Below are positions 10,782 through 25,106 of a DNA stretch of 64,000 nucleotides, piece by piece. The stretch is from the sequence record OX090893. One strand, given 5' to 3'. The first letter of the stretch is position 1. Each line of letters starts with the position of its first letter. Position numbers and translations under genes: made by a program. This DNA comes from Escherichia phage vB_Eco_PATM. The notes beneath the pieces are model-generated. The model worked only from the letters and a program-made list of their open reading frames with translations, did no database searches and was not told the DNA's origin.

Positions 10782-11504
10782 TTAAGCAATGATTGCTGCG
10801 ATATTAGGTTTAACAAAGGTAGATGGTTTCATAATTTTACCTTTGTCATCAAAGAATACGTACACCTTTTGAACTTCGTTATATACAGCATGTACCCCAG
10901 TATAAGAACCTTCTGCACGATCTTTGCTTCGCATCTCGATAGCATCGCACTCTTTTTCAAGAGCTTCAATAATATCCTTAGTTTCCCAAATAGCCAGGAG
11001 TTGCTTCTTGGTAGGATACTTGGACTCATTGCTATTCAACACTTCACGCATAACCTTCTTCTCGTTATAAACAGAACGCACCAAAGTATCTCGTGCCATA
11101 CGGGTAAGTGTAAGAGACATTAAGGCAAATTGCAAGTCATTTTCTACCATTTTATCAAATTCAATGATAACATCGTAGATGTTTTCTGCCAGAACATCTC
11201 CTGTCGGCATTTCCAGAGCTTTATCAACACCTTCTTTACCAAAGAACATAAACGCCAGGTAGGATGCTACCACAAAAATATCTGCTGCTGCATCAAGTAA
11301 TTCAACGTGATCATTTTCCTGTGCTGCTGCTTGGAACTCTTTAAGTTCTTCTCGTACAAAAGAAAGTTGAGCTTCAAACATCTCTTGAGTAAATTCTGGA
11401 GTTACTCCACCACGTGCCTTAGCATTCCAAGCAACAATTTGATCGGCAGCTTTGATAAAGAAGCTATTGTCCACTTTTACTTGTTTGAAAAAATTCTCGA
11501 TCAT
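10782..11504 (-). CDS. Hypothetical protein (240 aa), possibly all-alpha NTP pyrophosphohydrolase-like
   Basis: Acidic helical stretch ELLDAAADIFVVASY reminiscent of MazG/dUTPase-like EExxE/D sites; speculative. Confidence 0.35.
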   Translation of the reverse strand: MIENFFKQVKVDNSFFIKAADQIVAWNAKARGGVTPEFTQEMFEAQLSFVREELKEFQAAAQENDHVELLDAAADIFVVASYLAFMFFGKEGVDKALEMPTGDVLAENIYDVIIEFDKMVENDLQFALMSLTLTRMARDTLVRSVYNEKKVMREVLNSNESKYPTKKQLLAIWETKDIIEALEKECDAIEMRSKDRAEGSYTGVHAVYNEVQKVYVFFDDKGKIMKPSTFVKPNIAAIIA

Positions 11505-13558: not shown

Positions 13559-13963
13559 TTATTGTAGCTTAAGTGAACTGCGAAGACGTTCCTCTTGCTG
13601 ATCACGAATATGTTGTGGAACCTCATGAATTGAATCGTTACCGTGCCTATTCTCCACAACTAAAGAAATAACTTGATAACCAAACTCTTCGGCAAGAGTT
13701 AAATAAGGTTTAAGTTCTTTTTCTGTAGTAGAGGTATTAGAAACAATAATCTTTTCAACACCATACTGCATATATTTTTGTACTTTGACACGACACCATT
13801 GGTGTGCTTTATGGATATTCTCTTGTTTCCACTCATACACACCATCTTCAGTGTAGTGGTATTGATCTGCCTCACAAATAGGCCAATGATTTTCAGAGAT
13901 AATTTCTGCTACTGTAGATTTACCTGCACCTGAAACACCACGTAAAATGATAAGTTGTTTCAT
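13559..13963 (-). CDS. P-loop nucleotide kinase (polynucleotide 5'-kinase-like)
   Basis: 134 aa; Walker A GVSGAGKST at residues 9-17; small kinase fold like the kinase domain of polynucleotide kinases; directly abuts the ligase-like gene. Confidence 0.55.
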   Translation of the reverse strand: MKQLIILRGVSGAGKSTVAEIISENHWPICEADQYHYTEDGVYEWKQENIHKAHQWCRVKVQKYMQYGVEKIIVSNTSTTEKELKPYLTLAEEFGYQVISLVVENRHGNDSIHEVPQHIRDQQEERLRSSLKLQ

Positions 13964-14896
13964 TTAGCCTCCAAAGAAGTTTTCTATTTCTTTACGTCGC
14001 TCTTGTGGATCTAGAGCAGCCCATTGAACCTTCGTAAAGTTATTTCGAAGCCATTCTAGCAAAGTATAATATTCTTCGTCAACAATTTGTTTAGCATTGT
14101 TTGGGTTGTCCCAAATCATATCCCACTTCTTATTGCCACCACGCATAAGGAACTTCTTAGCAAGATAGTATGGTGACTTAATCTTTAAGAGTAAGTTAAA
14201 CGGATAGTTTGTTTCACGAACAACAAAGCCTTCGTGTCTACAATGTTTAGACATTTCAACAACATCTGAAAATTTAATCATCGGATAAACTTCAGGACGT
14301 TTAAATTTTGTAATAGATGCAATCCCATCAAGAACACCTTCAGGTAACATGAAACTTGTCCCGTCAAGATTTTGAATTCTTGCTCCAATTAAGTATGCGC
14401 CTGGTTCTTCTTCGACAATATGTGGATCAGAAGGATCACAGATTTCAAAAAGGAAAGTTGCTTTTGCACTTTCTGTCCACTTAATGAAATACTCTATGTC
14501 ATCACACTCGGAAACAATACGGTTCTTGGCAATAGTTGCAAAGTCTGATTCTAGGCTCCCTGTTGTTGATACAACAAGTTTCCCTTTGTACACACCTACA
14601 GATGCCATAAAACCGTTTACTTTACGGACAGCATCTACAATTTCGTCTGCTGGAAGATCTGTACCATTTTCAAAACGATTAAAGATTTTAGTAAAAGGCC
14701 AAATAACAACATTGTCTTCTGAGTCAACAACCAACCCACGACAATCTAGAAGTCGTTTGTCAACGTTCCACAAATTATCCCAGAATACATTGTTTTTGTA
14801 TTTAAGCACAGCAAGACCAGCATACTCTCCAGATTTAACTTCTTTTTTATGCACTAAACCTTTTACAATCAGGTCATCACAATTGAACTTAGCCAC
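13964..14896 (-). CDS. RNA-ligase-like nucleotidyltransferase (Rnl/Trl1-type)
   Basis: 310 aa; motif I KVNG, motif IV EGFVVR, motif V LLKIK; KxNG is the Trl1/Rnl1-type variant. Confidence 0.55.
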   Translation of the reverse strand: MAKFNCDDLIVKGLVHKKEVKSGEYAGLAVLKYKNNVFWDNLWNVDKRLLDCRGLVVDSEDNVVIWPFTKIFNRFENGTDLPADEIVDAVRKVNGFMASVGVYKGKLVVSTTGSLESDFATIAKNRIVSECDDIEYFIKWTESAKATFLFEICDPSDPHIVEEEPGAYLIGARIQNLDGTSFMLPEGVLDGIASITKFKRPEVYPMIKFSDVVEMSKHCRHEGFVVRETNYPFNLLLKIKSPYYLAKKFLMRGGNKKWDMIWDNPNNAKQIVDEEYYTLLEWLRNNFTKVQWAALDPQERRKEIENFFGG

Positions 14897-14897
14897 C

Positions 14898-15449
14898 TTA
14901 ATCTCCTTTGATTATCTTATGATGGTCTACAACAACAATATCACGCTTATCCATAATAGAGATGATTTCGTCAAAATGCAAGATTTTCCCGTGTGCATCC
15001 CAACCAACATCCAACATCTTCCCATACAAATGGTCAGGGAATGATCCGTGAGAGTGTCCGTGTAGCATGATTGATCCATGCCCTTGTTTATTCCAGGCAG
15101 CCATAGGGTAATGGCTTAAGACGAAAAACAGCTTCTGATATTTCACTTCGTCATAATAAACCACTTCTCCATACTCTGCAAGCACTTTTCTGTGTTTACT
15201 GTAATCATGGTTTCCAACACAGTAAGTAATATCCCCTTGGAGACGGGAAGCAATCTTACGGGTATCTTCTTCAGTCCCGAAACAGAAGTCCCCAAGATGG
15301 TACATCTTTACTCCTGGTGTTGTGGCACATTTATTCCATGCTTCGATCAGTGCTTCTGTCATATGCTCCATATCTTCCCACGGGCGATATTCAGGAGCAA
15401 ACTCTCGGATACGTTTGTGCATAAAATGCAAATCACTTGTAATAAACAT
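14898..15449 (-). CDS. Calcineurin-like metallophosphoesterase
   Basis: 183 aa; DLHFMH, GDFCFG, GNHD, HGHSH metallophosphatase motifs in canonical order. Confidence 0.7.
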   Translation of the reverse strand: MFITSDLHFMHKRIREFAPEYRPWEDMEHMTEALIEAWNKCATTPGVKMYHLGDFCFGTEEDTRKIASRLQGDITYCVGNHDYSKHRKVLAEYGEVVYYDEVKYQKLFFVLSHYPMAAWNKQGHGSIMLHGHSHGSFPDHLYGKMLDVGWDAHGKILHFDEIISIMDKRDIVVVDHHKIIKGD

Positions 15450-15811
15450 TAGTATAATCCCTCGCTGAATAGTTCACTGTTGTGACCATTTCTTTCGTAG
15501 TTAATTTGTTTGGCGTTATCTGCAATGATATAAGCATCTTTTCGACTCCACCAATTATAATACTGATCAATAAACCCTTGATTATCAGGTAAGCAAAACA
15601 GCTTATCGATCAATCCTGCATCTTTTAAAACATTAAGTTGTGCAGATAGTACAGGATTTGCATGCCTAACACAAGGAATAATTAACTCTTCACCATTGTT
15701 GAGAATATACTTATTCGCAGCGCAGACTATAACACGTTGAGCATAGTGATCCTCACCAATCCAGGTAAGAGGTTGGTAACAAATATCATGTTGATTAGTA
15801 GCGCACATCAA
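15449..15811 (-). CDS. Hypothetical protein (120 aa)
   Basis: ORF adjacent to the phosphoesterase; no motif. Confidence 0.4.
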   Translation of the reverse strand: MMCATNQHDICYQPLTWIGEDHYAQRVIVCAANKYILNNGEELIIPCVRHANPVLSAQLNVLKDAGLIDKLFCLPDNQGFIDQYYNWWSRKDAYIIADNAKQINYERNGHNSELFSEGLY

Positions 15812-15966
15812 TTTTCTCCATACTCTTTTAGTCTATCAGCGAAAAAACTGTAATCAGGAAGTAAAAGATCATTACTCGTATCGCTCCAGTTCTCTTCCTC
15901 TCTATAGATAAAATGCCCTTCATCCTCTTCTTGCTCTGACCAAACTGAATAATGCATAATACCTAC

Positions 15967-16341
15967 TTAATAGTTAACACGTTTAATTTCAACACCATAG
16001 GATGAAATAAAATTTTCCTTAGCTAACATATATTTACCAGCAGCAGAAGGATTTGATGTATGAACATAGATAGTTTTAAGAGCATCCCATTCACCCGCGT
16101 ACAACATACATTCTACATCCAAGAACGCATGATAGCCTTCTTGATCTTCCCCAAGATCATTATCGAAGTGTATTTCTGATATATTGTTGAAATTATCTTC
16201 ATCTGAAACAAAAGATGACCAATCCCCAAAAGATTTTAACCAAATGGCATCCTCATAACCATAATCTTTAGGATCTCTTAAATCGTCTAACCAAAGAATT
16301 TTAGCCACTATCAACCTCCTTCCTGTTTCTCTTCTTTCCAA
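15967..16341 (-). CDS. Hypothetical protein (124 aa)
   Basis: ORF; N-terminal ILWLDDLRDP; no assignable motif. Confidence 0.4.
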   Translation of the reverse strand: MERRETGRRLIVAKILWLDDLRDPKDYGYEDAIWLKSFGDWSSFVSDEDNFNNISEIHFDNDLGEDQEGYHAFLDVECMLYAGEWDALKTIYVHTSNPSAAGKYMLAKENFISSYGVEIKRVNY

Positions 16342-17499: not shown

Positions 17500-17565
17500 T
17501 TATTTTTCCTTTGTTTAAAATGTGTTAAACAATCGCAAATGCTTGTGACGCACTTTGTGATTCCA

Positions 17566-17934
17566 CTAATTAATGTCAGCACTATGATTGTTGAGAGTAT
17601 AGGATACTCCATCGCCCAAGTCAACATGAATCTCAACTCCTAACTGTCTTTCTAATGGTAAACGTTTTGAGAATTGATAATTACAAAGTTTACAGTCTAA
17701 GTCAAGCAACTCATGTTTGCTTAAACCTGCGACGATAACTTTGCTCCCCACTGTCCACTCAATACCTTCAAAGTTATCTCTTCTTTTCAAAATGTCAAGT
17801 AAGAAGATGATTTGTTGCCATTCCGTAGACAAGTCTTCTTCATAGAATGCAGAACAAAAAGTTTTATCATCGTAGAAAGCATACATTATGCCTCCATCTA
17901 TTGTTTCACTTCTAACGTAACGTGTGACCCTCAT
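17566..17934 (-). CDS. Hypothetical protein (122 aa), first gene of the leftward block
   Basis: ORF starting next to the divergent intergenic region. Confidence 0.45.
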   Translation of the reverse strand: MRVTRYVRSETIDGGIMYAFYDDKTFCSAFYEEDLSTEWQQIIFLLDILKRRDNFEGIEWTVGSKVIVAGLSKHELLDLDCKLCNYQFSKRLPLERQLGVEIHVDLGDGVSYTLNNHSADIN

Positions 17935-18065
17935 TATTCCCTCCTGTATGGCTCTGTAACGAGCTAATGGCCTCTAAGATATGCAATCACCTTACCTCAC
18001 AGTAAAACTCGTTACAATCGTTTTTAGGAGGTTCAGGTTGTACTTAAAAATAATCTAAAAAGGTG

Positions 18066-18094
18066 TTGACAAACGCAAAAAAGTATGCTACCCT
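18066..18094 (+). promoter_or_regulatory. Sigma70-like promoter (TTGACA-17-TACCCT, weak -10)
   Basis: TTGACA at 18066-18071 within the AT-rich divergent region. Confidence 0.35.
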
Positions 18095-18276
18095 AACCCC
18101 CGAAAAACGCCGAGCGCAGCGAGGTGGGTGTTATCTAATCTTGTGATACATGATCTAACAGACAACTGAGTAGTCTACACATAGCACTATGTTATGTCTC
18201 TAATACTAACATACATACTCTATACTAACAATAGATTCTTTATTAATTTTATTATTAATTAAATAATAAATATCTA

Positions 18277-18305
18277 TTGACTTTAGATTTATCTGTATGT
18301 AGAGT
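18277..18305 (+). promoter_or_regulatory. Sigma70-like promoter (TTGACT-17-TAGAGT)
   Basis: Hexamers with 17 nt spacer about 40 nt upstream of the 18345 start; RBS AAGGAG precedes the ATG. Confidence 0.55.
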
Positions 18306-18344
18306 AGAGAACATAAAGTCCTAACTCAACTAAGGAGATAAACA

Positions 18345-19238
18345 ATGAAAGTTAGTATTCTACATGGTGTTGGCTGTTATGTTACTGATGTAGACGTTAA
18401 AGTCTTTACATTCTCTGGTGGAGAACAACATGTTCAACTAGACACGAATCTATCAGGTTTCAATCATGCTACAGACAGAATCTTACTCTCTTTAGAAGTA
18501 AGATCTGCTAAAGACTTGATGACTTTGGTTATGACTAAGAATGCATTGGACAATATGCTATATCATAAACCATATTGTGTTGATTTGCTCATGTTGTATG
18601 TGCCATATGCACGACAAGACAGAGTGTGTGAACCTGGGGAAGCATTCGGAGTTAAAGCATTTGCTTCTATAATTAATTCATTAAATTTCTCACGTGTTAT
18701 CGTTGCTGATCCACATAGTGATGTTACTCCAGCAGTGTTTGACAGACTCTGTGTAATACCTCAAGAAGAGATTGCTTACGAAACTTTAAAGTGGAAGTTA
18801 CGTATGGAGAATTTTGCTCTTGTTAGTCCTGATGGTGGTGCTCTTAAGAAAATATTTAAATTATCTAAGAAAATGTCTTTAGATGTGTTCTGTGCAGAGA
18901 AGGTTAGAGATACTGCAACAGGTGCTATTGTTCGTACAGACATTTCTGTACAGGATTTCAATAAGCGTAACCTGATGATCGTAGATGATATCTGTGATGG
19001 TGGTAGAACTTTTATTGAGTTGGCTAAAGTGCTACGTGCTCGTAACGCAGGTAAGATTGAGTTATATGTTACACACGGTATCTTTTCTAAAGGTCTTAAA
19101 GAGTTAAGTGAGCACTTTGACTGCATTCATTCTCTTAATGTGTGGGAAGATAACATCCAAGAAGATTCCGGTGTTCTTGTTAAGAATCAGTCAGATTTGC
19201 AACAACAAATTGTATCTCCATACGTGTGGAATTTTTAA
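18345..19238 (+). CDS. Ribose-phosphate pyrophosphokinase (PRPP synthetase)-like enzyme; candidate ADP-ribose pyrophosphate synthetase of an NAD+ reconstitution pathway
   Basis: 297 aa; PRPP-binding loop LMIVDDICDGGRT; directly followed by a NAMPT-like gene. Confidence 0.65.
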   Translation: MKVSILHGVGCYVTDVDVKVFTFSGGEQHVQLDTNLSGFNHATDRILLSLEVRSAKDLMTLVMTKNALDNMLYHKPYCVDLLMLYVPYARQDRVCEPGEAFGVKAFASIINSLNFSRVIVADPHSDVTPAVFDRLCVIPQEEIAYETLKWKLRMENFALVSPDGGALKKIFKLSKKMSLDVFCAEKVRDTATGAIVRTDISVQDFNKRNLMIVDDICDGGRTFIELAKVLRARNAGKIELYVTHGIFSKGLKELSEHFDCIHSLNVWEDNIQEDSGVLVKNQSDLQQQIVSPYVWNF

Positions 19239-19248
19239 ATAATAAGTG

Positions 19249-19277
19249 TTGACAATAGGGAGTATGCTTAGTAAGAT
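19249..19277 (+). promoter_or_regulatory. Sigma70-like promoter (TTGACA-17-TAAGAT)
   Basis: Consensus -35 with 17 nt spacer upstream of the NAMPT-like gene. Confidence 0.5.
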
Positions 19278-19309
19278 ACTCCCACACTAACAAACAAGGA
19301 GACATAACT

Positions 19310-21043
19310 ATGAATATTTTTGCACCTTTTGCTACTGATTGGTATAAACCTGGTCACAAGCAGATGTACAACCAAAATACAAAACTCATTTTCTCTAATT
19401 TAACTCCTCGTAATGATAAAAACTTTGCACACTATGCAGATCGTGAAGCACGTGGTGTGATTGTTTTAGGTATTCGTCGAGCAGTCACTGATGCTCTTGT
19501 AACTATGTGGGACAGCTTCTTTAAAATGTCTCGTAGTGCAGCAGTAAATAAATTTTATCGTATGTCTAAAAATGCATTAGGTGCTTCTGCTCCTTCTGCT
19601 GAATGTTGGGGAGAATTGCACGATTTAGGTTATCTTCCGCTAGAAGTTCGATCTCTGCCAGAAGGTGTTTTGTGTCCTATTGGTGTTCCTGTGTTTACTG
19701 TGCATAATACTTTAGAAAAATTCTTTTGGTTAACTAACTATGTGGAAACACTCTTGTCAGATGAAACTTGGAAGACAATGACTAATGCCACAGCAGCTTT
19801 TCAGTATAAGCGTATCGCTATGGCGTATGCGATGGCAACGTGTGATAACATTGATCACGTTAATTTCCAGTGTCATGACTTTAGCCTACGTGGTTTAAGC
19901 AATATCGAAGATGGTTATAAGAGTGGTATCGCTCATTTGGCATCTTTCACAGGTACAGATAATATTCTGGCTATTGAAACTGTGCATGATTACTATGGTA
20001 TTGATTATGATCAGTTTGTTGCAGGTTCTATTCCGGCAACAGAACATTCAGTAGCAACGACTAACATTGGAGCTATTGTTGAAGATCTAAAGGAACATTT
20101 TCCACGTCTTAAAGCTGATGTAGATTGGCTTCGTTATGTAGCAGAAAAAGAGTTTCTTCGTCGTTATATTGAAGAAATTGTTCCAGAAGGTTTTTGTTCA
20201 TATGTAGCAGATTCTTATGATTACTGGACTGTATTGACTAACATTCTGGTAGAGTTGAAAGATTCCATCATGTCACGAAATGGTCGTCTTGTTATTCGTC
20301 CAGATTCAGGAGATCCGGTTAAAGTTGTTGCAGGATACAATGTTGAATCTTTTGATAACTATGAAGATCTTTTAAATAATGGTATTGCTACAGCCACTGA
20401 AGTAGTACATTTGGCTGATGTTAATAAGTATTACAATGTTCTTCAGGATTGCAGTGTTGCTGATTGTATTGATGAAACTTATGAGATTCCTTATTGTGAA
20501 GCAGTAGGTTCTATTCAAATCCTTTGGGAAGTGTTTGGTGGTACTATCAACCGAAAAGGCTACAAGGTTCTTGATCAGCACATCGGTATGATTTATGGTG
20601 ATTCTATTACTGTTGAACGAGAACACGAGATCTTACGCCGACTGAAGAAGAAAGGTTTTGCAGCTTCCAATATTGTATTTGGTGTTGGTAGTTATACTTA
20701 TCAGTTCAATACACGAGATACTTTTGGTTTTGCTGTTAAAGCAACAGGTAGTATCATCGGTGAACACGAAATTTTGGTAAGTAAAGAGCCTAAAACTGAT
20801 CCTGGTAAACGCTCTGCAAAAGGTTTTATTAAGGTTGTTAAGGATACAAATGGTAAACTTTCTCTTGTGGATAATCTTTCTTTTAAAGATATCCAAGATG
20901 AAGACAATGAGTTAAAAGTTATCTTCAGGGATGGTACGGTTATTACACCACAAGTAGAAGGACGTGATGAAACATTTACTGATATCCGCAACCGTGTTGA
21001 TGTAGAGGTTCTTCGTACTATGGGAACCATCCAGGTTGACTAA
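19310..21043 (+). CDS. nadV: Nicotinamide phosphoribosyltransferase (NAMPT/NadV)-like enzyme; candidate nicotinamide ADP-ribose transferase
   Basis: 577 aa; length and gene pairing with the PRPP-synthetase-like gene fit phage NadV-family enzymes; no single diagnostic motif verified by eye. Confidence 0.6.
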   Translation: MNIFAPFATDWYKPGHKQMYNQNTKLIFSNLTPRNDKNFAHYADREARGVIVLGIRRAVTDALVTMWDSFFKMSRSAAVNKFYRMSKNALGASAPSAECWGELHDLGYLPLEVRSLPEGVLCPIGVPVFTVHNTLEKFFWLTNYVETLLSDETWKTMTNATAAFQYKRIAMAYAMATCDNIDHVNFQCHDFSLRGLSNIEDGYKSGIAHLASFTGTDNILAIETVHDYYGIDYDQFVAGSIPATEHSVATTNIGAIVEDLKEHFPRLKADVDWLRYVAEKEFLRRYIEEIVPEGFCSYVADSYDYWTVLTNILVELKDSIMSRNGRLVIRPDSGDPVKVVAGYNVESFDNYEDLLNNGIATATEVVHLADVNKYYNVLQDCSVADCIDETYEIPYCEAVGSIQILWEVFGGTINRKGYKVLDQHIGMIYGDSITVEREHEILRRLKKKGFAASNIVFGVGSYTYQFNTRDTFGFAVKATGSIIGEHEILVSKEPKTDPGKRSAKGFIKVVKDTNGKLSLVDNLSFKDIQDEDNELKVIFRDGTVITPQVEGRDETFTDIRNRVDVEVLRTMGTIQVD

Positions 21044-21114
21044 ATAAAAACTTCGTGATAAGATTAAGGTAAGGAGAGCCTGCAACTGCCCTGGATGGGC
21101 TTCACGAAGGATTT

Positions 21115-21336
21115 ATGAAACAACATAATTTTTATTTTCGTTGCCGAGCCTGTAACAGACACTTGACTAATCATTCCCGTAGAGACAGGAATGGTAATAT
21201 TCAAGAGTCGGATCTATGCTCGATTTGTACAAGTTTGGCATTCGACGACAGTCCCGAAAGGGTTTATCAACATCAAAGTGTAACTGATCTTCTTCTAAAT
21301 TACACAGCACCAGAGGAGGAATTAGATTTCACATAA
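21115..21336 (+). CDS. Small zinc-ribbon protein (73 aa)
   Basis: CRACNRH ... CSIC pairs; RBS GAAGGA upstream. Confidence 0.4.
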   Translation: MKQHNFYFRCRACNRHLTNHSRRDRNGNIQESDLCSICTSLAFDDSPERVYQHQSVTDLLLNYTAPEEELDFT

Positions 21337-21349
21337 TTAAGGAAACAGT

Positions 21350-21460
21350 ATGTCTACAGAAATTATTTTTGGCTTATCTGTTTTTATTGCTATTGTATCT
21401 TTTGTATGCGGTTATACACTAGGTTACAGATCAAGAAAAAATATTGTAAAAACTAGTTGA
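21350..21460 (+). CDS. Small hydrophobic single-TM peptide (36 aa), not in ORF track
   Basis: Manual translation MSTEIIFGLSVFIAIVSFVCGYTLGYRSRKNIVKTS with RBS AAGGAA 6 nt upstream. Confidence 0.3.
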   Translation: MSTEIIFGLSVFIAIVSFVCGYTLGYRSRKNIVKTS

Positions 21461-21486
21461 CAACATAGCTAGTTATTTGCTAAGAT
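21457..21486 (+). promoter_or_regulatory. Sigma70-like promoter (TTGACA-18-TAAGAT)
   Basis: Hexamers upstream of the 21516 ORF. Confidence 0.45.
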
Positions 21487-21515
21487 AAGCACAAGTTAAA
21501 CAAAAGGAGAAAACT

Positions 21516-21782
21516 ATGACAGAAAATACTTATGGTAAAGAATTGATTGAGAAGCACGTATTGATTGATAATAAAGGTGGAGCAATCTTTCTTTTTGATC
21601 CTGAATCAGTTCTTACTGAAAACGAAAATGGTAGCGTTAGCCTTAAAACAGAAAGTTTGGTAATTGACTTCCTTGCTCTTCTGGATGAAATGGGGCTTCC
21701 TCACGAAGAAGAAGCAGCTATTGCTTTGATTACAGTTCTTCTGGAGAAACGCGAAGCTGGTGAAATGACCCAGTATGCTTAA
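21516..21782 (+). CDS. Hypothetical protein (88 aa)
   Basis: ORF with RBS AAGGAG; ends immediately before the first tRNA. Confidence 0.45.
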   Translation: MTENTYGKELIEKHVLIDNKGGAIFLFDPESVLTENENGSVSLKTESLVIDFLALLDEMGLPHEEEAAIALITVLLEKREAGEMTQYA

Positions 21783-21789
21783 TATTCAA

Positions 21790-21865
21790 GGTTCCATAGC
21801 TCACTGACGAGAGCGCACACCTCATAAGTGTCGAGGGCAGGGATTGTAACCCTGGGGAACCACCA
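21790..21865 (+). tRNA. tRNA, anticodon CAT (Met/Ile2-type), atypical T-loop
   Basis: Hand-folded cloverleaf: acceptor GGTTCCA/GGGAACC, D-stem GCTC/GAGC, anticodon loop CTCATAA, encoded CCA; T-loop ATTGTAA is non-canonical. Confidence 0.55.
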
Positions 21866-21896
21866 TTTAAAAGGAGGTGCTATGCATCTCCTATAT

Positions 21897-21982
21897 GCAA
21901 GTGTGGTGGAATTGGTGATACACATTGTGCTTAAAACGCAACGCTTAAATGCTTGAGGGTTCGAATCCCTCCACTTGCACCA
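21897..21982 (+). tRNA. tRNA-Leu (anticodon TAA)
   Basis: Acceptor GCAAGTG/CACTTGC, anticodon loop CTTAAAA, long variable arm, T-arm GAGGGTTCGAATCCCTC, encoded ACCA. Confidence 0.75.
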
Positions 21983-21984
21983 AC

Positions 21985-22090
21985 GCCTAGTAGGGTATTT
22001 GGTAATTCCGAGGCCATCAAAGCCTGAAAAATATGTTAGACCACTTTGTCTAACTAAATACGAAATATGGTTCGATTCCATAACTAGGCT
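21985..22090 (+). tRNA. Atypical tRNA-like element (106 nt; perfect acceptor and T-arm but about 30 nt extra internal sequence)
   Basis: Acceptor GCCTAGT/ACTAGGC and T-arm TATGG-TTCGATT-CCATA are canonical, but the interior has a 7-bp hairpin GTTAGAC-N6-GTCTAAC and no clean anticodon arm; no encoded CCA. Confidence 0.35.
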
Positions 22091-22124
22091 TCAATTTAAA
22101 TAATAATTTTTTAGTAAAAATATC

Positions 22125-22153
22125 TTGACATTTACTTAGTTTTTTGTTATAGT
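22125..22153 (+). promoter_or_regulatory. Sigma70-like promoter (TTGACA-17-TATAGT)
   Basis: Near-consensus hexamers 11 nt upstream of the next tRNA-like gene. Confidence 0.55.
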
Positions 22154-22164
22154 TACTGTGAAAA

Positions 22165-22246
22165 CGGGGTGTATCTCACCTGACTTCTAATCAGGCGTTA
22201 ACCGAGTAATTGGAGTATGCAGGTTCGAATCCTGTCACCCCGACCA
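22165..22246 (+). tRNA. Atypical tRNA-like gene, anticodon loop CTTCTAA (TCT, Arg-like); D-arm not foldable by eye
   Basis: Acceptor CGGGGTG/CACCCCG, perfect anticodon arm CCTGA-CTTCTAA-TCAGG, T-arm GCAGG-TTCGAAT-CCTGT, encoded CCA; only 7 nt between acceptor and anticodon stem, 23 nt variable region. Confidence 0.4.
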
Positions 22247-22310
22247 AAAAAGTTTTAAAAACTACTTGACAAGCAAGATAGTTTTATGTTAGATTTAAAG
22301 TATGATAACG

Positions 22311-22400
22311 GGAAGGTAGGGCGCAGCGGTGCGCAACCAGGTTTGAACCCTGGCCCATTGTAGCGATACGGTGATGGTTCGACTCCATTATCTTCCTCCA
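22311..22400 (+). tRNA. tRNA-Ser (anticodon TGA)
   Basis: Acceptor GGAAGGT/ATCTTCC, anticodon arm CCAGG-TTTGAAC-CCTGG, long variable arm, encoded CCA. Confidence 0.75.
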
Positions 22401-22418
22401 AATTCGCTTAGGAGCTTT

Positions 22419-22571
22419 ATGAATTATAAAACTATTGGACAGGTTGTTACCGGAGTTAAGATTGTAAATAATAAAGTTGTTTATGAGTATTCTAATCTTC
22501 AACAATCTGAAGATGGTAAGAATATTCGTATGGTAAAATCAGAACAAAAAGATTCCGGTTGTTTTGAATAA
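22419..22571 (+). CDS. Small hypothetical protein (50 aa) between tRNA genes
   Basis: ATG at 22419 preceded by RBS AGGAG; the longer ORF-track version starts inside the tRNA. Confidence 0.3.
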   Translation: MNYKTIGQVVTGVKIVNNKVVYEYSNLQQSEDGKNIRMVKSEQKDSGCFE

Positions 22572-22579
22572 TTAAGAAC

Positions 22580-22665
22580 GGTAGATTGGTGAAATGGTAG
22601 CCACAACAGTTTGCTAAACTGTCGTCGGAAACGGCGTGTAGGTTCAAGTCCTACATCTACCGCCA
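22580..22665 (+). tRNA. tRNA-Ser (anticodon GCT)
   Basis: Acceptor GGTAGAT/ATCTACC, anticodon arm ACAGT-TTGCTAA-ACTGT, long variable arm, T-arm GTAGG-TTCAAGT-CCTAC, encoded CCA. Confidence 0.75.
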
Positions 22666-22715
22666 AGTTATCTTTAATGTAGCTTGTTGCTCTTAGTTGC
22701 TTGGTGTAACTTTTT

Positions 22716-22790
22716 GGAAGGATGGCTGCAACCATCTTACTTTAATAGAGTAAACTTTCGGCAGATGGCCCCCACCATCTTACCGATACC
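22716..22790 (+). repeat. Two related hairpins sharing CCATCTTAC (GGATGG-CTGCAA-CCATCTTAC and AGATGG-CCCCCA-CCATCTTAC)
   Basis: Seen directly in the inter-tRNA spacer; function unknown. Confidence 0.4.
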
Positions 22791-22835
22791 TCATAGTTAG
22801 TGGTGCGAACACTGGCTATTTTAAAGATAATTTAT

Positions 22836-22911
22836 ACATCGTTAGCTTAGTTGGTAGAGCAAGGGGCTTTTAACTCCAAGGTCGAAGGTTCGAATCCTTC
22901 ACGATGTACCA
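22836..22911 (+). tRNA. tRNA-Lys (anticodon TTT)
   Basis: Acceptor ACATCGT/ACGATGT, D-loop AGTTGGTA, anticodon loop CTTTTAA, T-arm GAAGG-TTCGAAT-CCTTC, encoded CCA. Confidence 0.7.
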
Positions 22912-22916
22912 AACAC

Positions 22917-23003
22917 GTAGGTATCGCATAGCGGCAATTGCTGGAGACTGTAAATCTCCTGCCCTTCGGGGCTTCGTTGGTTCGAGTCCAACTACCTGCA
23001 CCA
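22917..23003 (+). tRNA. tRNA-Tyr (anticodon GTA)
   Basis: Acceptor GTAGGTA/TACCTGC, anticodon arm GGAGA-CTGTAAA-TCTCC, long variable arm, encoded CCA. Confidence 0.7.
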
Positions 23004-23010
23004 AATTAAA

Positions 23011-23095
23011 GATGGATTGGCCTAGTGGTTGGGCGACGGACTGTTAATCCGTGAACGAAAGTTCTAGCAAGGTTCAAATCCTTGATCCATCGCCA
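23011..23095 (+). tRNA. tRNA with anticodon GTT (Asn) and an unusually long hairpin variable arm
   Basis: Acceptor GATGGAT/ATCCATC, anticodon arm ACGGA-CTGTTAA-TCCGT, variable hairpin GAAC-GAAA-GTTC, T-arm CAAGG-TTCAAAT-CCTTG, encoded CCA. Confidence 0.5.
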
Positions 23096-23099
23096 AATA

Positions 23100-23167
23100 G
23101 TGCTTGTAGAGTTAATAGAAACCTCTAGAATTTTCTAGAATTGTAGGTATCAAATCCTACCAAGCAA
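23100..23167 (+). pseudogene. Degenerate tRNA-like element (anticodon arm replaced by the palindrome TCTAGAATTTTCTAGA)
   Basis: Acceptor-like TGCTTG/CAAGCA, D-stem AGAG/CTCT and a T-arm-like GTAGG-TATCAAAT-CCTAC, but the central hairpin has a 4-nt loop and no anticodon loop; no CCA. Confidence 0.3.
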
Positions 23168-23174
23168 ATATTTT

Positions 23175-23249
23175 GCTCCTATCGTATAACGGCTATTACG
23201 GTTGCCTTGTAAGCAACTTATCAGGGTTCGAGTCCTTGTGGGAGCACCA
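23175..23249 (+). tRNA. tRNA-Thr (anticodon TGT)
   Basis: Acceptor GCTCCTA/TGGGAGC, anticodon arm GTTGC-CTTGTAA-GCAAC, T-arm CAGGG-TTCGAGT-CCTTG, encoded CCA. Confidence 0.7.
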
Positions 23250-23270
23250 ATTTAACTCTAAAGGAGTGTA

Positions 23271-23595
23271 TGTGACAGAAAAAGAGTTAGAGAAATATTT
23301 TAATATCAATGTTTTCGATGGTTTTGATGATATTGAAGATGTTGAAAGATATTATGAAGTAGAGTTAGATAAGGATAACATTGTAATTCTTTCTGCCACT
23401 TATGATTGTGCATATTATGAAGGTGAATCTCACGTTTATTTTTATGATATGAAAACATCTTTGTTTTATGAAGTACACGCATATCATTGTTCTTGTTATG
23501 GTTTAGAAGGTCAGTGGGAACCTGAAGAAATAGGTGATTTGGACTTTACTATTGCATATCTAAACAGACGTGGTGCATCTACTATTTTAAAATAA
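23271..23595 (+). CDS. Hypothetical protein (about 108 aa) inside the tRNA island; probable GTG start
   Basis: RBS AAGGAG then GTG at 23271; the longer ORF-track version starts inside tRNA-Thr. Confidence 0.4.
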
Positions 23596-23609
23596 ATATC
23601 AAAAGCCTC

Positions 23610-23639
23610 TTGACAAAGGGGCTAATAATATGTTAGAGT
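23610..23639 (+). promoter_or_regulatory. Sigma70-like promoter (TTGACA-18-TAGAGT)
   Basis: Hexamers upstream of tRNA-Gly. Confidence 0.45.
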
Positions 23640-23650
23640 AATATTGTTAA

Positions 23651-23725
23651 GCGGGTATAGTGTTAATGGTAGCATATGAGGTTTCCACCCTCCAGGTGCA
23701 GGTTCAAGTCCTGTTACTCGCTCCA
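23651..23725 (+). tRNA. tRNA-Gly (anticodon TCC)
   Basis: Acceptor GCGGGTA/TACTCGC, anticodon loop TTTCCAC, T-arm GCAGG-TTCAAGT-CCTGT, encoded CCA. Confidence 0.7.
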
Positions 23726-23824
23726 AGATTATTTAAATGGAATCGCTAGAGAAAATTTCTCTTTTCGCTCATGGTTTTCTCCTTCAAACTCTAGCGGTTC
23801 TTTTTAAGTGATTTTTAGTTTTAT

Positions 23825-23899
23825 TGGAGATTAGCCTAGTGGGAAGGCAACGGCCTTTGAAGTCGTGATGACTAGGTTCGATTCCTAGATCTCCAGCCA
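23825..23899 (+). tRNA. tRNA-Gln (anticodon TTG)
   Basis: Acceptor TGGAGAT/ATCTCCA, anticodon arm ACGGC-CTTTGAA-GTCGT, T-arm CTAGG-TTCGATT-CCTAG, encoded CCA. Confidence 0.7.
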
Positions 23900-23941
23900 A
23901 TTAATTGCATAGCATGAGTATTTCTCATTGGTTAAAAGGAG

Positions 23942-24307
23942 ATGCAAGTGAATTGTGAACATTGTGGTAGTGAGTTTACTTTGATAAAAGGTCATGGTGG
24001 ACAAAACAGATCATACTGTTACACTTGTATTCCAGAAGGTTTAGATAAACAAGTACGCACAAGATTACATCAAGAGCTTAGAAGAGAGCGATCTCATAAG
24101 ATGAAACTTGATTTAGGTTGCAAAGTGTGTGGTTATGCTAAATGTGCAGTAGCACTAGAATGGCATCACCCAGAGGACGATAAGAAACACGATCCATCAA
24201 ATGCAATCAAAAGATCTTGGTCTGCTTACTTAGAAGAGACTGAAAAGTGTATCTTACTGTGTGCCAATTGTCATAGAGAAGTACATGCTGGTCTTATACA
24301 GGTTTAA
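23942..24307 (+). CDS. HNH homing-endonuclease-like protein embedded in the tRNA cluster
   Basis: 121 aa; N-terminal CEHCG zinc finger; HNH core LEWHHPEDDKKHDPSNAIKR ... LLCANCHREVH; RBS AAAGGAG upstream; stop abuts tRNA-Pro. Confidence 0.75.
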   Translation: MQVNCEHCGSEFTLIKGHGGQNRSYCYTCIPEGLDKQVRTRLHQELRRERSHKMKLDLGCKVCGYAKCAVALEWHHPEDDKKHDPSNAIKRSWSAYLEETEKCILLCANCHREVHAGLIQV

Positions 24308-24308
24308 T

Positions 24309-24384
24309 CAGTGCGTAGCGCAGTTGGTAGCGTGGGAGCCTTGGACGCTTCAGGTCGCAGGTTCGAGTCCTGCCGCACTGACCA
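24309..24384 (+). tRNA. tRNA-Pro (anticodon TGG)
   Basis: Acceptor CAGTGCG/CGCACTG, D-arm GCGC-AGTTGGTA-GCGT, anticodon arm GGAGC-CTTGGAC-GCTTC, T-arm GCAGG-TTCGAGT-CCTGC, encoded CCA. Confidence 0.75.
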
Positions 24385-24389
24385 AATTT

Positions 24390-24464
24390 GCAGAGATAGC
24401 TGAGACGGATTAGTGCTACCCTGAAAAGGTAGAAAGGATGGATCGTTACCATCTCTCTGCACCA
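24390..24464 (+). tRNA. tRNA-Phe (anticodon GAA), atypical T-loop
   Basis: Acceptor GCAGAGA/TCTCTGC, anticodon arm CTACC-CTGAAAA-GGTAG, T-arm GATGG-ATCGTTA-CCATC, encoded CCA. Confidence 0.6.
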
Positions 24465-24541
24465 AATAACACCATCCAAGGAGTAGACTTGGTTAACTGT
24501 CAATAGCACATTGAGGCTTCTTACAGTGGTGTACTTATTAT

Positions 24542-24626
24542 GGCTAAGTGGTGGAATGGTATACACGATACGCTTAGAACGTATTGCCCCAGGGGATTGT
24601 GAGTTCGAGTCTCACCTTAGCTACCA
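24542..24626 (+). tRNA. tRNA-Leu (anticodon TAG)
   Basis: Acceptor GGCTAAG/CTTAGCT, anticodon arm ATACG-CTTAGAA-CGTAT, variable hairpin CCCC-A-GGGG, T-arm GTGAG-TTCGAGT-CTCAC, encoded CCA. Confidence 0.75.
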
Positions 24627-24714
24627 TATCTAAGAGATATCATAGGGTTTGCAACGGATATCCACCGTCCTATTAAGGATACCACGCCAAGACGGGTTGT
24701 AAAGGGTTAGCCAT

Positions 24715-24790
24715 TGATAGTGTGAAGCTGGCGTTTCGAGTGCTTTCATAAGGCATTGCGAGAAGAGTTCGATTCTCTTACTATCAACCA
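24715..24790 (+). tRNA. tRNA with anticodon CAT (Met/Ile2-type)
   Basis: Acceptor TGATAGT/ACTATCA, anticodon arm GTGCT-TTCATAA-GGCAT with wobble pairs, T-arm AAGAG-TTCGATT-CTCTT, encoded CCA. Confidence 0.55.
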
Positions 24791-24805
24791 AATTATTACA
24801 GATTG

Positions 24806-24884
24806 TGCGGGATAGAGGAGTCTGGTCGTCCTCGCCAGTTTCATATGCTGGAGATCATCGGTTCGAATCCGATTCCCGCCTCCA
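24806..24884 (+). tRNA. tRNA with anticodon CAT and unpaired 1:72 position (initiator-like)
   Basis: Acceptor TGCGGGA/TCCCGCC with mismatch at the first pair, D-arm GAGG/CCTC, anticodon arm CCAGT-TTCATAT-GCTGG, T-arm ATCGG-TTCGAAT-CCGAT, encoded CCA. Confidence 0.5.
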
Positions 24885-24942
24885 ATAAATACCTCCCTTC
24901 TGGTGTAATGATTAAGTTACATTGACACTTCAAGGAACTCAT

Positions 24943-25025
24943 AGCCGGGTAGATTTAAAAGAGTATGGTACTCAATATGGCTCCAAACCATAGATCAGGG
25001 GGTTCGATTCCTCACCTTGCTGCCA
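24943..25025 (+). tRNA. tRNA-Trp-like (anticodon CCA), irregular acceptor/D region
   Basis: Clear anticodon arm TATGG-CTCCAAA-CCATA and T-arm GGGGG-TTCGATT-CCTCA with encoded CCA; 5' acceptor only pairs 6 of 7 and D-region is long; start coordinate approximate. Confidence 0.4.
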
Positions 25026-25030
25026 ATTAT

Positions 25031-25106
25031 TGTGGTATCGTACAGATGGTTAGTACACTCGACCGATAATCGAGAAACAACGGTTCGACTCCGTTTACCA
25101 CGACCA
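25031..25106 (+). tRNA. tRNA-Ile (anticodon GAT)
   Basis: Acceptor TGTGGTA/TACCACG, anticodon arm CTCGA-CCGATAA-TCGAG, T-arm AACGG-TTCGACT-CCGTT, encoded CCA. Confidence 0.6.

Follow-up and report, generated by a model that had tools for sequence, protein, structure and literature searches.

The closest described relatives of the locus analysed here are phage NAD+ reconstitution pathways of the NARP1 type, which pair Adps (ADP-ribose pyrophosphokinase), a relative of phosphoribosyl pyrophosphate (PRPP) synthetases, with the NAMPT-like Namat (nicotinamide ADP-ribose transferase). The pathway owes its definition to Osterman et al., who combined in vivo work on phage Bas63 with biochemistry on the SPbetaL1 homologues (10.1101/2024.02.11.579819). 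Enzymology involving ADP-ribose pyrophosphate (ADPR-PP) and NAD+ has been shown for the homologues of SPbetaL1, ICP1, and DyoEdafos (including PMC13586617), and rescue from NAD+-depleting defence has been shown by deletions in Bas63 and FADO and by knock-ins in SBSphiJ (10.1101/2024.02.11.579819). Here we describe two adjacent genes, adps and namat, in a 64,000-nucleotide stretch of Escherichia phage vB_Eco_PATM (sequence record OX090893), referred to as a whole as the window. We read the pair, with a probability of roughly 0.9, as the plain NARP1 of a phi92-like coliphage, with an Adps and a Namat that would together rebuild NAD+; substrates, products, and the anti-defence phenotype are assigned by homology. 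What the sequence shows directly is that the genes are intact and paired, to which family and clade each protein belongs, and that functional residues are conserved.

Two sets of structures guided the comparison. Crystal structures of SPbetaL1 Namat (PDB 9W5X and 9W5W) define an adenine "selectivity clamp," which consists of a helix of the form GSX-Phi1-X-Phi2-X-Phi3-TRD, in which positions 3 and 7 are aromatic, and a variable loop (PMC12774641). In that loop, the stacking residue is the third if it is Arg and the fourth when the third is Lys or Tyr (PMC12774641). Structures of ICP1 Adps reported in 2026 (apo, substrate, and product forms) identify the residues by which ADP-ribose and ATP are bound (PMC13586617). 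In extended forms of NARP1, the core pair is joined by a phosphatase with a Macro domain (NARP1-AP) or by a glycosidase with a RyR domain (RyDEP).

Results

The adps and namat genes are on the same strand, in that order, and separated by 71 bp; in both, the Shine-Dalgarno sequence AAGGAG lies 7 to 8 nt 5' of the ATG (Table 1). An intergenic region of 410 bp is located directly 5' of the pair, where both the coding strand and the GC skew flip from minus to plus, and 16 tRNA genes are clustered 3' of namat (21790-25106). A sequence-only reading of the window, made without database searches, had placed here a plus-strand gene for a PRPP-synthetase-fold enzyme carrying the motif DDICDGGRT, followed by a gene for a NAMPT-sized protein, and had supposed that older annotations would name them Prs and NadV. 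Each of these points holds. Both open reading frames (ORFs) occur in the ORF list at the proposed coordinates and strand, the motif is present in the first protein, whose family matches are to PRPP synthetases, and the second protein is a 577-residue member of the NAMPT/NAPRTase family. Furthermore, public records name the products ribose-phosphate pyrophosphokinase and nicotinamide/nicotinate phosphoribosyltransferase (NadV).

In profile comparisons, the first protein resembles Adps enzymes more than canonical Prs. It matches phrog_619 (E 5.9e-91), TIGR01251 (E 2.3e-34), and the Pfam families Pribosyltran and Pribosyl_synth, and it is 35% identical to Bas63 Adps, 31% to SPbetaL1 Adps, 40.5% to ICP1 Adps (over 252 residues), and 25% to Escherichia coli Prs. 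The Prs side of this comparison is represented by the E. coli enzyme and reciprocal profile scores, and the split between Adps and Prs clades is that of the published tree (Osterman et al.). With the broad subfamily model TIGR01251, the window protein is narrowly above the cut-off (118.7 versus 113 bits), and Bas63 Adps, SPbetaL1 Adps, and E. coli Prs score 138.5, 106, and 422.7 bits, respectively. The cut-offs of the Prs equivalog and PRK01259 models are all missed: the window protein reaches 99.6 versus a required 297 bits with NF002320, on which E. coli Prs scores 532.6, and 97.8 versus 296 bits with NF002095, and it scores lower still with the remaining Prs equivalog models. With a profile built from 80 viral Adps proteins encoded next to Namat genes, it scores 285 bits, versus 319 for Bas63, 221 for SPbetaL1, and 140 for E. 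coli Prs.

Conservation at the residue level points the same way. The predicted catalytic lysine, Lys186, occupies an alignment column in which all 84 Adps proteins agree and corresponds to K162 of SPbetaL1, K185 of ICP1, and K194 of E. coli Prs. Substitution K162A abolishes activity of SPbetaL1 Adps (Osterman et al., 10.1101/2024.02.11.579819), and substitution of K185 does the same in ICP1 Adps (PMC13586617). The DDICDGGRT segment aligns with ICP1 D212, D213, and I214 and the PP loop C215-S220; the residues D, D, I, C, D, and G are shared with ICP1, and A218-A219-S220 of the ICP1 loop corresponds to G220-R221-T222, the family majority being G-R-T. In the alignment, ICP1 residues F18, R87, H121, D161, K185, R187, I194, and V195 are kept in the window Adps, as are D212, D213, I214, C215, D216, G217, and F221. 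The counterparts of the ICP1 acceptor-groove, catalytic, and PP-loop residues are K186, R90, H124, D163, D214, D215, and C217-D218-G219. Among the kept residues, F18' is an aromatic contact from the neighbouring protomer in ICP1 Adps and F221 is its lid (PMC13586617). E. coli Prs shares with the window Adps the fold family, the ARQDR, DPH, and K-x-R motifs, and the DD...G.T loop, but it differs in the Adps-specific conserved residues P87, S125, A166, G193, F223, and L240 and in having C-terminal regulatory and filament helix residues that the window protein lacks. Specifically, the filament and allosteric positions of PRPS (R301, R302, N305, and E307) have no equivalents in the window Adps, nor was an alignable alpha11-alpha12 helix pair found there.

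The second protein belongs with Namats. Its family matches include phrog_448 (E 1.6e-187), NF006629 (E 1.7e-138), and Pfam NAPRTase (E 3.9e-38), and its best solved relatives are the SPbetaL1 Namat entries 9W5X and 9W5W (E 4e-118, 399 bits). Human NAMPT scores 167 bits (E ~5e-48), and the third-best solved relative is PDB 9KE8/9KEO, an entry for which no paper was traced. The selectivity-clamp helix (SCH) fits the published consensus: adenine-stacking positions Y462 and F466 are aromatic, and Phi1, Phi2, and Phi3 are T, Q, and N. The selectivity-clamp loop (SCL) is long, as in Namats, whereas Nampts have a short SRGGKF loop. SPbetaL1 Namat contacts NAD+ through 20 residues, 16 of which are identical in the window protein; of the four that differ (R40 to K37, A362 to S432, F392 to Y462, and Y396 to F466), the first three are as in Bas63 and the fourth is aromatic. 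In KVP40-like and T4-like Nampts, the clamp positions are occupied by Gly, Gly, and Gln or Glu. His246 takes the place of the catalytic histidine in the NAMPT-type core, and Arg330 that of SPbetaL1 R306 and human NAMPT R311; R306G and R306A both abolish SPbetaL1 Namat activity (PMC12774641; 10.1101/2024.02.11.579819).

Two insertions of lineage-variable length interrupt this protein. The first comprises 35 residues in the window Namat, 27 in Bas63, 12 in SPbetaL1, and 13 in Nampts; the second comprises 61, 92, 15, and 3 residues, respectively, and about 45 of the 80 viral Namats have at least 40 residues there. Both go unmentioned in the SPbetaL1 structure paper (PMC12774641).

Gene association and clade membership were assessed in 80 viral-contig (IMG/VR) loci carrying the NAMPT-family genes nearest to the window Namat (38 to 54% identity). 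An Adps homologue is encoded on the same strand in all 80 (upstream in 73 and downstream in 7), and position 3 of the SCH is Tyr or Phe in 79. Osterman et al. used as their pairing criterion an Adps and a Namat within ten genes. For contrast, Nampts were taken from five annotated phage records, and a viral-contig scan with one KVP40-like Nampt returned two near-identical loci only. All eight phage Nampts without an Adps (from KVP40-like, Slopekvirus, Biquartavirus, Menderavirus, and unclassified Straboviridae phages) lack the aromatic clamp, having GGLLQ..RD or GGLHQ..RD instead, and no Adps is found in their flanks; an annotated NadM adenylyltransferase lies within 6 kb in two of the eight. 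In a neighbour-joining tree, Nampts split from 83 Namats, the window protein included, in 100 of 100 bootstraps. A profile of the 80 viral Namats scores the window Namat at 697 bits, versus 220 to 312 bits for six Adps-less Nampts.

The pair is shared by close relatives. Over 3.4 kb, the region matches Escherichia phage outra at 99.4% identity and about 54 other phi92-like phages at 98 to 99%; this is the group to which the window belongs (Justusliebigvirus, Stephanstirmvirinae), and both proteins are conserved at 98 to 100% over about 55 sequenced relatives. The window Adps is identical to phi92 gp107 (100%). The window Namat is the orthologue of phi92 gp108, with 10 of its 577 residues different, and has 2 differences from its counterpart in the BASEL phage Bas61 (EmilieFrey). 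The pair is already known as a catalogued NARP1 example and is no discovery, because Osterman et al., in the supplement to the NARP1-defining paper, had already entered the proteins of phi92, outra, and EmilieFrey as Adps and Namat: in Supplementary Table 1 the Prs-family members are marked "Namat within 10 genes: Yes," and in Supplementary Table 2 the NadV-family members are marked "Adps-associated," not "Nmnat-associated" (10.1101/2024.02.11.579819). NARP1 is also among the systems that DefenseFinder detects. Our literature search found no connection between NARP1 and phi92-like phages in the main texts of papers. The phi92 RefSeq record also places a 151-nt "hypothetical tRNA" inside gp108 (L003 3402-3552, approximately 19900-20050 of the window); neither ARAGORN nor Rfam supports it, and it is probably an annotation artefact.

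Table 1. Positions of the gene pair, its functional elements, and nearby features in the window
Feature	Position	Strand	Basis
adps: putative ADP-ribose pyrophosphokinase, PRPP-synthetase-like, 297 aa	18345..19238	+	ORF, family matches
namat: putative nicotinamide ADP-ribose transferase, NAMPT-like, 577 aa	19310..21043	+	ORF, family matches
Shine-Dalgarno AAGGAG of adps	18332..18337	+	Sequence reading; phi92 RefSeq annotates the same ribosome-binding site
Shine-Dalgarno AAGGAG of namat	19296..19301	+	Sequence reading; phi92 RefSeq annotates the same ribosome-binding site
Adps Lys186 codon, predicted catalytic	18900..18902	+	Alignment
Adps DDICDGGRT, ribose-binding Asp pair and PP loop, residues 214-222	18984..19010	+	Alignment to ICP1
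Namat SCL PRNDKNFAHYADREARG, residues 33-49	19406..19456	+	Aligned to SPbetaL1 R40 and Bas63 K-W
Namat His246 codon, catalytic histidine of NAMPT-type core	20045..20047	+	Invariant alignment column; role from PMC12774641
Namat lineage-variable insertion 1, residues 250-284	20057..20161	+	Alignment
Namat Arg330 codon	20297..20299	+	Alignment
Namat lineage-variable insertion 2, residues 341-401	20330..20512	+	Alignment
Namat SCH GSYTYQFNTRD, residues 460-470	20687..20719	+	Fits published Namat consensus
Promoter-like TTGACT-17-TAGAGT, about 40 nt 5' of adps start	18277..18305	+	Consensus scan, 9/12 matches
Promoter-like TTGACA-17-TAAGAT in adps-namat gap	19249..19277	+	Consensus scan, 10/12 matches
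TTGACW-N16-18-TAAGAT sites	19249-19277, 21036-21064, 21457-21486	+	Pattern count
AAA_33 kinase, RNA-repair-like set	13559-13963	-	Domain match
T4 Rnl1-type RNA ligase, RNA-repair-like set	13964-14896	-	Domain match
Metallophos_2 phosphoesterase, RNA-repair-like set	14898-15449	-	Domain match
cREC_REC "cyclic-phosphate processing receiver" protein	15967-16341	-	Domain match

The sequence-only reading had also given each gene its own sigma70-like promoter, a claim that stands in part. A consensus match does precede each gene, and the pattern TTGACW-N16-18-TAAGAT, to which the site between the genes belongs, is enriched: it occurs 3 times in the window versus 0.13 expected, always on the plus strand and directly 5' of an ORF start. 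However, the site ahead of adps is by itself statistically indistinguishable from chance, and the promoter-like sites of the region as a whole (17 versus a shuffled expectation of 14.5) show no excess. The three TAAGAT sites suggest that small genes here each have a promoter of one common early type, and separate promoters for adps and namat are plausible from these motifs. No riboswitch (for NAD+, PRPP, or another ligand) and no other Rfam family was found ahead of the genes by an Rfam scan of positions 17500-22000 at E <= 1, the sole credible match being a downstream tRNA. The long leader 5' of adps (18064-18130) includes a further stretch with TTGACA, TTGACAAACGCAAAAAAGTATGCT, which has AGTATGCT in common with the site at 19249 and is followed by a GC-rich hairpin that the scan scored as a minus-strand terminator (18121-18108).

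An RNA-repair-like set of minus-strand genes (13559-16341; Table 1) lies some 2 kb away from the pair. Homologues of its ligase, kinase, and phosphoesterase occur within 6 kb of NARP1 in 8 to 11 of the 80 viral loci, all of them in related myovirus groups. Shared synteny likely explains this co-occurrence, and a functional tie between the set and NARP1 was set aside, the co-occurrence being confined to those groups. Two further observations concern the surroundings. Between tRNA-Gln and tRNA-Pro, which are 7 bp apart in Bas61/EmilieFrey, the window has a 409-bp insertion (23900-24308). It contains a plus-strand ORF of 121 residues (23942-24307) with an HNH-like motif, EWHH...N...CANCHREVH, to which Pfam gives only a weak zinc-ribbon match; this ORF probably encodes a homing endonuclease that invaded the tRNA array. 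On the minus strand, a 240-residue ORF (10782-11504) encodes a PRA-PH/MazG-like nucleotide pyrophosphohydrolase domain; it adds a further gene of nucleotide metabolism to this early region, with no evident link to NARP1.

Discussion

The mechanism proposed for the pair follows that of characterized NARP1 systems. A host NADase effector of the SIR2, TIR, or SEFIR type would split NAD+ into ADP-ribose and nicotinamide. Adps would then pyrophosphorylate ADP-ribose at the 1'' hydroxyl of its terminal ribose, using the beta-gamma pyrophosphate of ATP and giving ADPR-PP and AMP, and Namat, using NAMPT-type chemistry, would let nicotinamide displace the pyrophosphate of ADPR-PP to yield NAD+ directly, without a nicotinamide mononucleotide (NMN) intermediate. 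The adenine-stacking clamp, with Y462 and F466 on the helix and a K37-N38-F39 loop contributed by the partner protomer, is predicted to favour ADPR-PP over PRPP. As a result, the phage would escape NAD+-depleting abortive-infection systems. Cleavage of the aRES type, which yields ADPR-1''-phosphate, is predicted not to be countered, because the module has no Macro-domain phosphatase (Adpp) attached and aRES leaves a 1''-phosphate on ADP-ribose. The earlier reading had proposed just such an NAD+ reconstitution pair and had suggested alignment against characterized Adps/Namat and Prs/NadV enzymes as a check; by motifs, residues, profiles, and pairing, the two proteins fall on the Adps and Namat side, and its caution that substrates cannot be told from sequence is upheld.

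Several observations weigh against the assignment. The characterized systems (Bas63, SPbetaL1, FADO, ICP1, and DyoEdafos) are only 31 to 45% identical to the window proteins. The third residue of the SCL is Lys37, but the fourth, Asn38, is nonaromatic and departs from the published rule; Phe39 comes next, in a K-x-F pattern common to the closest relatives. In Adps, ICP1 residues F92 and F223 are replaced by C95 and E225, at positions that both vary family-wide, and a tail of about 30 unaligned C-terminal residues is absent from the ICP1 and SPbetaL1 enzymes. Because of this tail, the window Adps only partly follows the Adps pattern of lacking the PRPS C-terminal module. In addition, adps and namat may be transcribed separately rather than as a strict operon. 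Finally, in vitro, Namat homologues can still convert PRPP to NMN (PMC12774641; 10.1101/2024.02.11.579819), and thus the window pair may also contribute to salvage.

Some of these features could be taken to mean that the phi92-lineage enzymes are functionally distinct, with an altered donor range or regulation, for example, salvage of ADPR-cyclic-phosphate or ADPR-1''-phosphate together with the RNA-repair genes. This idea arises from the longer clamp loop with K37-N38-F39, the Namat insertions, the Adps tail, and possible independent transcription, and we consider it a slim prospect. In our view, the nonaromatic clamp-loop Asn, the insertions, the tail, and the possible internal promoter are lineage details that leave the classification unaffected; the Namat insertions are found in variable form in Bas63 and in about half of viral Namats as well, and it is the crystallized SPbetaL1 enzyme that is without them.

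NARP1 chemistry might alternatively serve a housekeeping role, in which ADP-ribose released by phage or host ADP-ribosylation and by RNA repair would be recycled and NAD+ kept high for replication. The pair heads a putative early, separately promoted gene block beside the tRNA array and 2 kb from the RNA-repair-like module, homologues of which recur near NARP1 as described above, and bacterial chromosomes also carry NARP1 homologues. Against this, that recurrence is confined to related myovirus groups and explained by shared synteny, Pfam scans of the flanking ORFs found no ADP-ribosyltransferase beside the pair, and in Bas63 ADPR-PP was seen only with a defence system present and the deletion phenotype was defence specific (10.1101/2024.02.11.579819). 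Such a role is improbable.

Classical salvage, in which a true PRPP synthetase would convert ribose-5-phosphate to PRPP and a true Nampt would make NMN, with host NadR/PncC finishing NAD+, is what the old GenBank and RefSeq annotations imply; the two would then be an auxiliary metabolic gene pair. The first protein's score barely over the TIGR01251 cut-off, the second protein's passing of NF006629, and NMN formation from PRPP by characterized Namats in vitro are all compatible with it. Nevertheless, the first protein fails every Prs equivalog cut-off, scores like proven Adps enzymes and about 300 bits under E. coli Prs, and is without the PRPS filament residues, whereas the second has an aromatic adenine clamp that true Nampts do not have and clusters with Namats in every bootstrap. 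Furthermore, SPbetaL1 Adps gave no product in the canonical Prs assay, and Bas63 beat defence even in a pncC nadR mutant host (10.1101/2024.02.11.579819). We therefore judge salvage as the pair's actual function to be very unlikely. That one or both genes are catalytically dead and kept by linkage, as only the clamp-loop deviations and lineage-specific insertions hint, is scarcely credible given intact ORFs with strong ribosome-binding sites, retention of all catalytic and most ligand-contact residues, and 98 to 100% protein conservation over about 55 sequenced relatives.

The value of assigning the pair to NARP1 is practical rather than conceptual, as understanding of the pathway is unchanged. 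Phi92-like phages (Justusliebigvirus) are therapy candidates against encapsulated E. coli, and the module predicts that they would resist SIR2-HerA/Nezha, type I Thoeris, DSR1/2, SEFIR, and similar NAD+-depleting defences. They would be expected to stay exposed to aRES because the module is without the Adpp phosphatase. The legacy "Prs/NadV" labels in about 55 public genomes of the group should be read as Adps/Namat.

Comparison with known systems

Among the described NAD+ reconstitution pathways, NARP3 (PnuC plus NadR; PMC13464706) is ruled out, the window proteins being of the PRPP-synthetase and NAPRTase families. NARP2, the Vibrio phage KVP40-type combination of Nampt and bifunctional Nmnat, shares with the window the NAMPT superfamily and catalytic core (the window Namat is 33% identical to the KVP40-like ValKK3 Nampt), but its Nampts have GGLLQQLDRD, no aromatic clamp, and the short loop, and have an Nmnat partner and no adjacent Adps, whereas the window combines a clamp with an Adps. 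No homologue of a NadM-type Nmnat was detected at E <= 1 in the 64-kb window, the only part of the genome searched, which argues against NARP2. NARP1-AP (Adps-Adpp-Namat, Vibrio phage Gary) and the RyDEP-linked NARP1 of mycobacteriophage DyoEdafos have the same two core enzymes as the window. Pfam scans of the nine ORFs closest to the pair (two downstream, of 73 and 88 residues, and seven upstream) detected neither a Macro nor a RyR domain, and hence no extension to ADPR-1''-phosphate or cyclic ADPR signals is predicted. As judged from gene content, the window pair is a plain two-gene NARP1, because no Nmnat, Macro-domain, or RyR-domain gene goes with it.

Relative to the plain systems, the window Adps is 17 residues longer at the C terminus than that of the Vibrio phage ICP1. 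The Bacillus phage SPbetaL1 NARP1 resembles the window pair in having the equivalents of Namat R306 and Adps K162, and it differs in several respects: its Namat is 491 residues long and lacks the 35- and 61-residue insertions, its clamp loop is short and Arg40 stacks directly, its Adps PP loop reads DDLSSFGGT rather than DDICDGGRT, and its two genes overlap, whereas those of the window are spaced. Bas63 (JohannRWettstein; genes 79-80) belongs to Felixounavirus rather than Justusliebigvirus, has Trp rather than Asn38 at clamp-loop position 4, and has an intergenic gap of 45 bp, compared with the window's 71 bp containing a promoter-like site; it is also backed by in vivo deletion and metabolite evidence. 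In other respects the two agree: host species, gene order, and strand arrangement are the same, Adps and Namat are 35% and 40% identical, respectively, and the DDICDGGRT loop is shared. The clamp helix of Bas63 (GSYTYQYMTRD) is of the same type as that of the window, Lys occupies clamp-loop position 3 in both, and Bas63 Namat carries both of the insertions that SPbetaL1 Namat is without.

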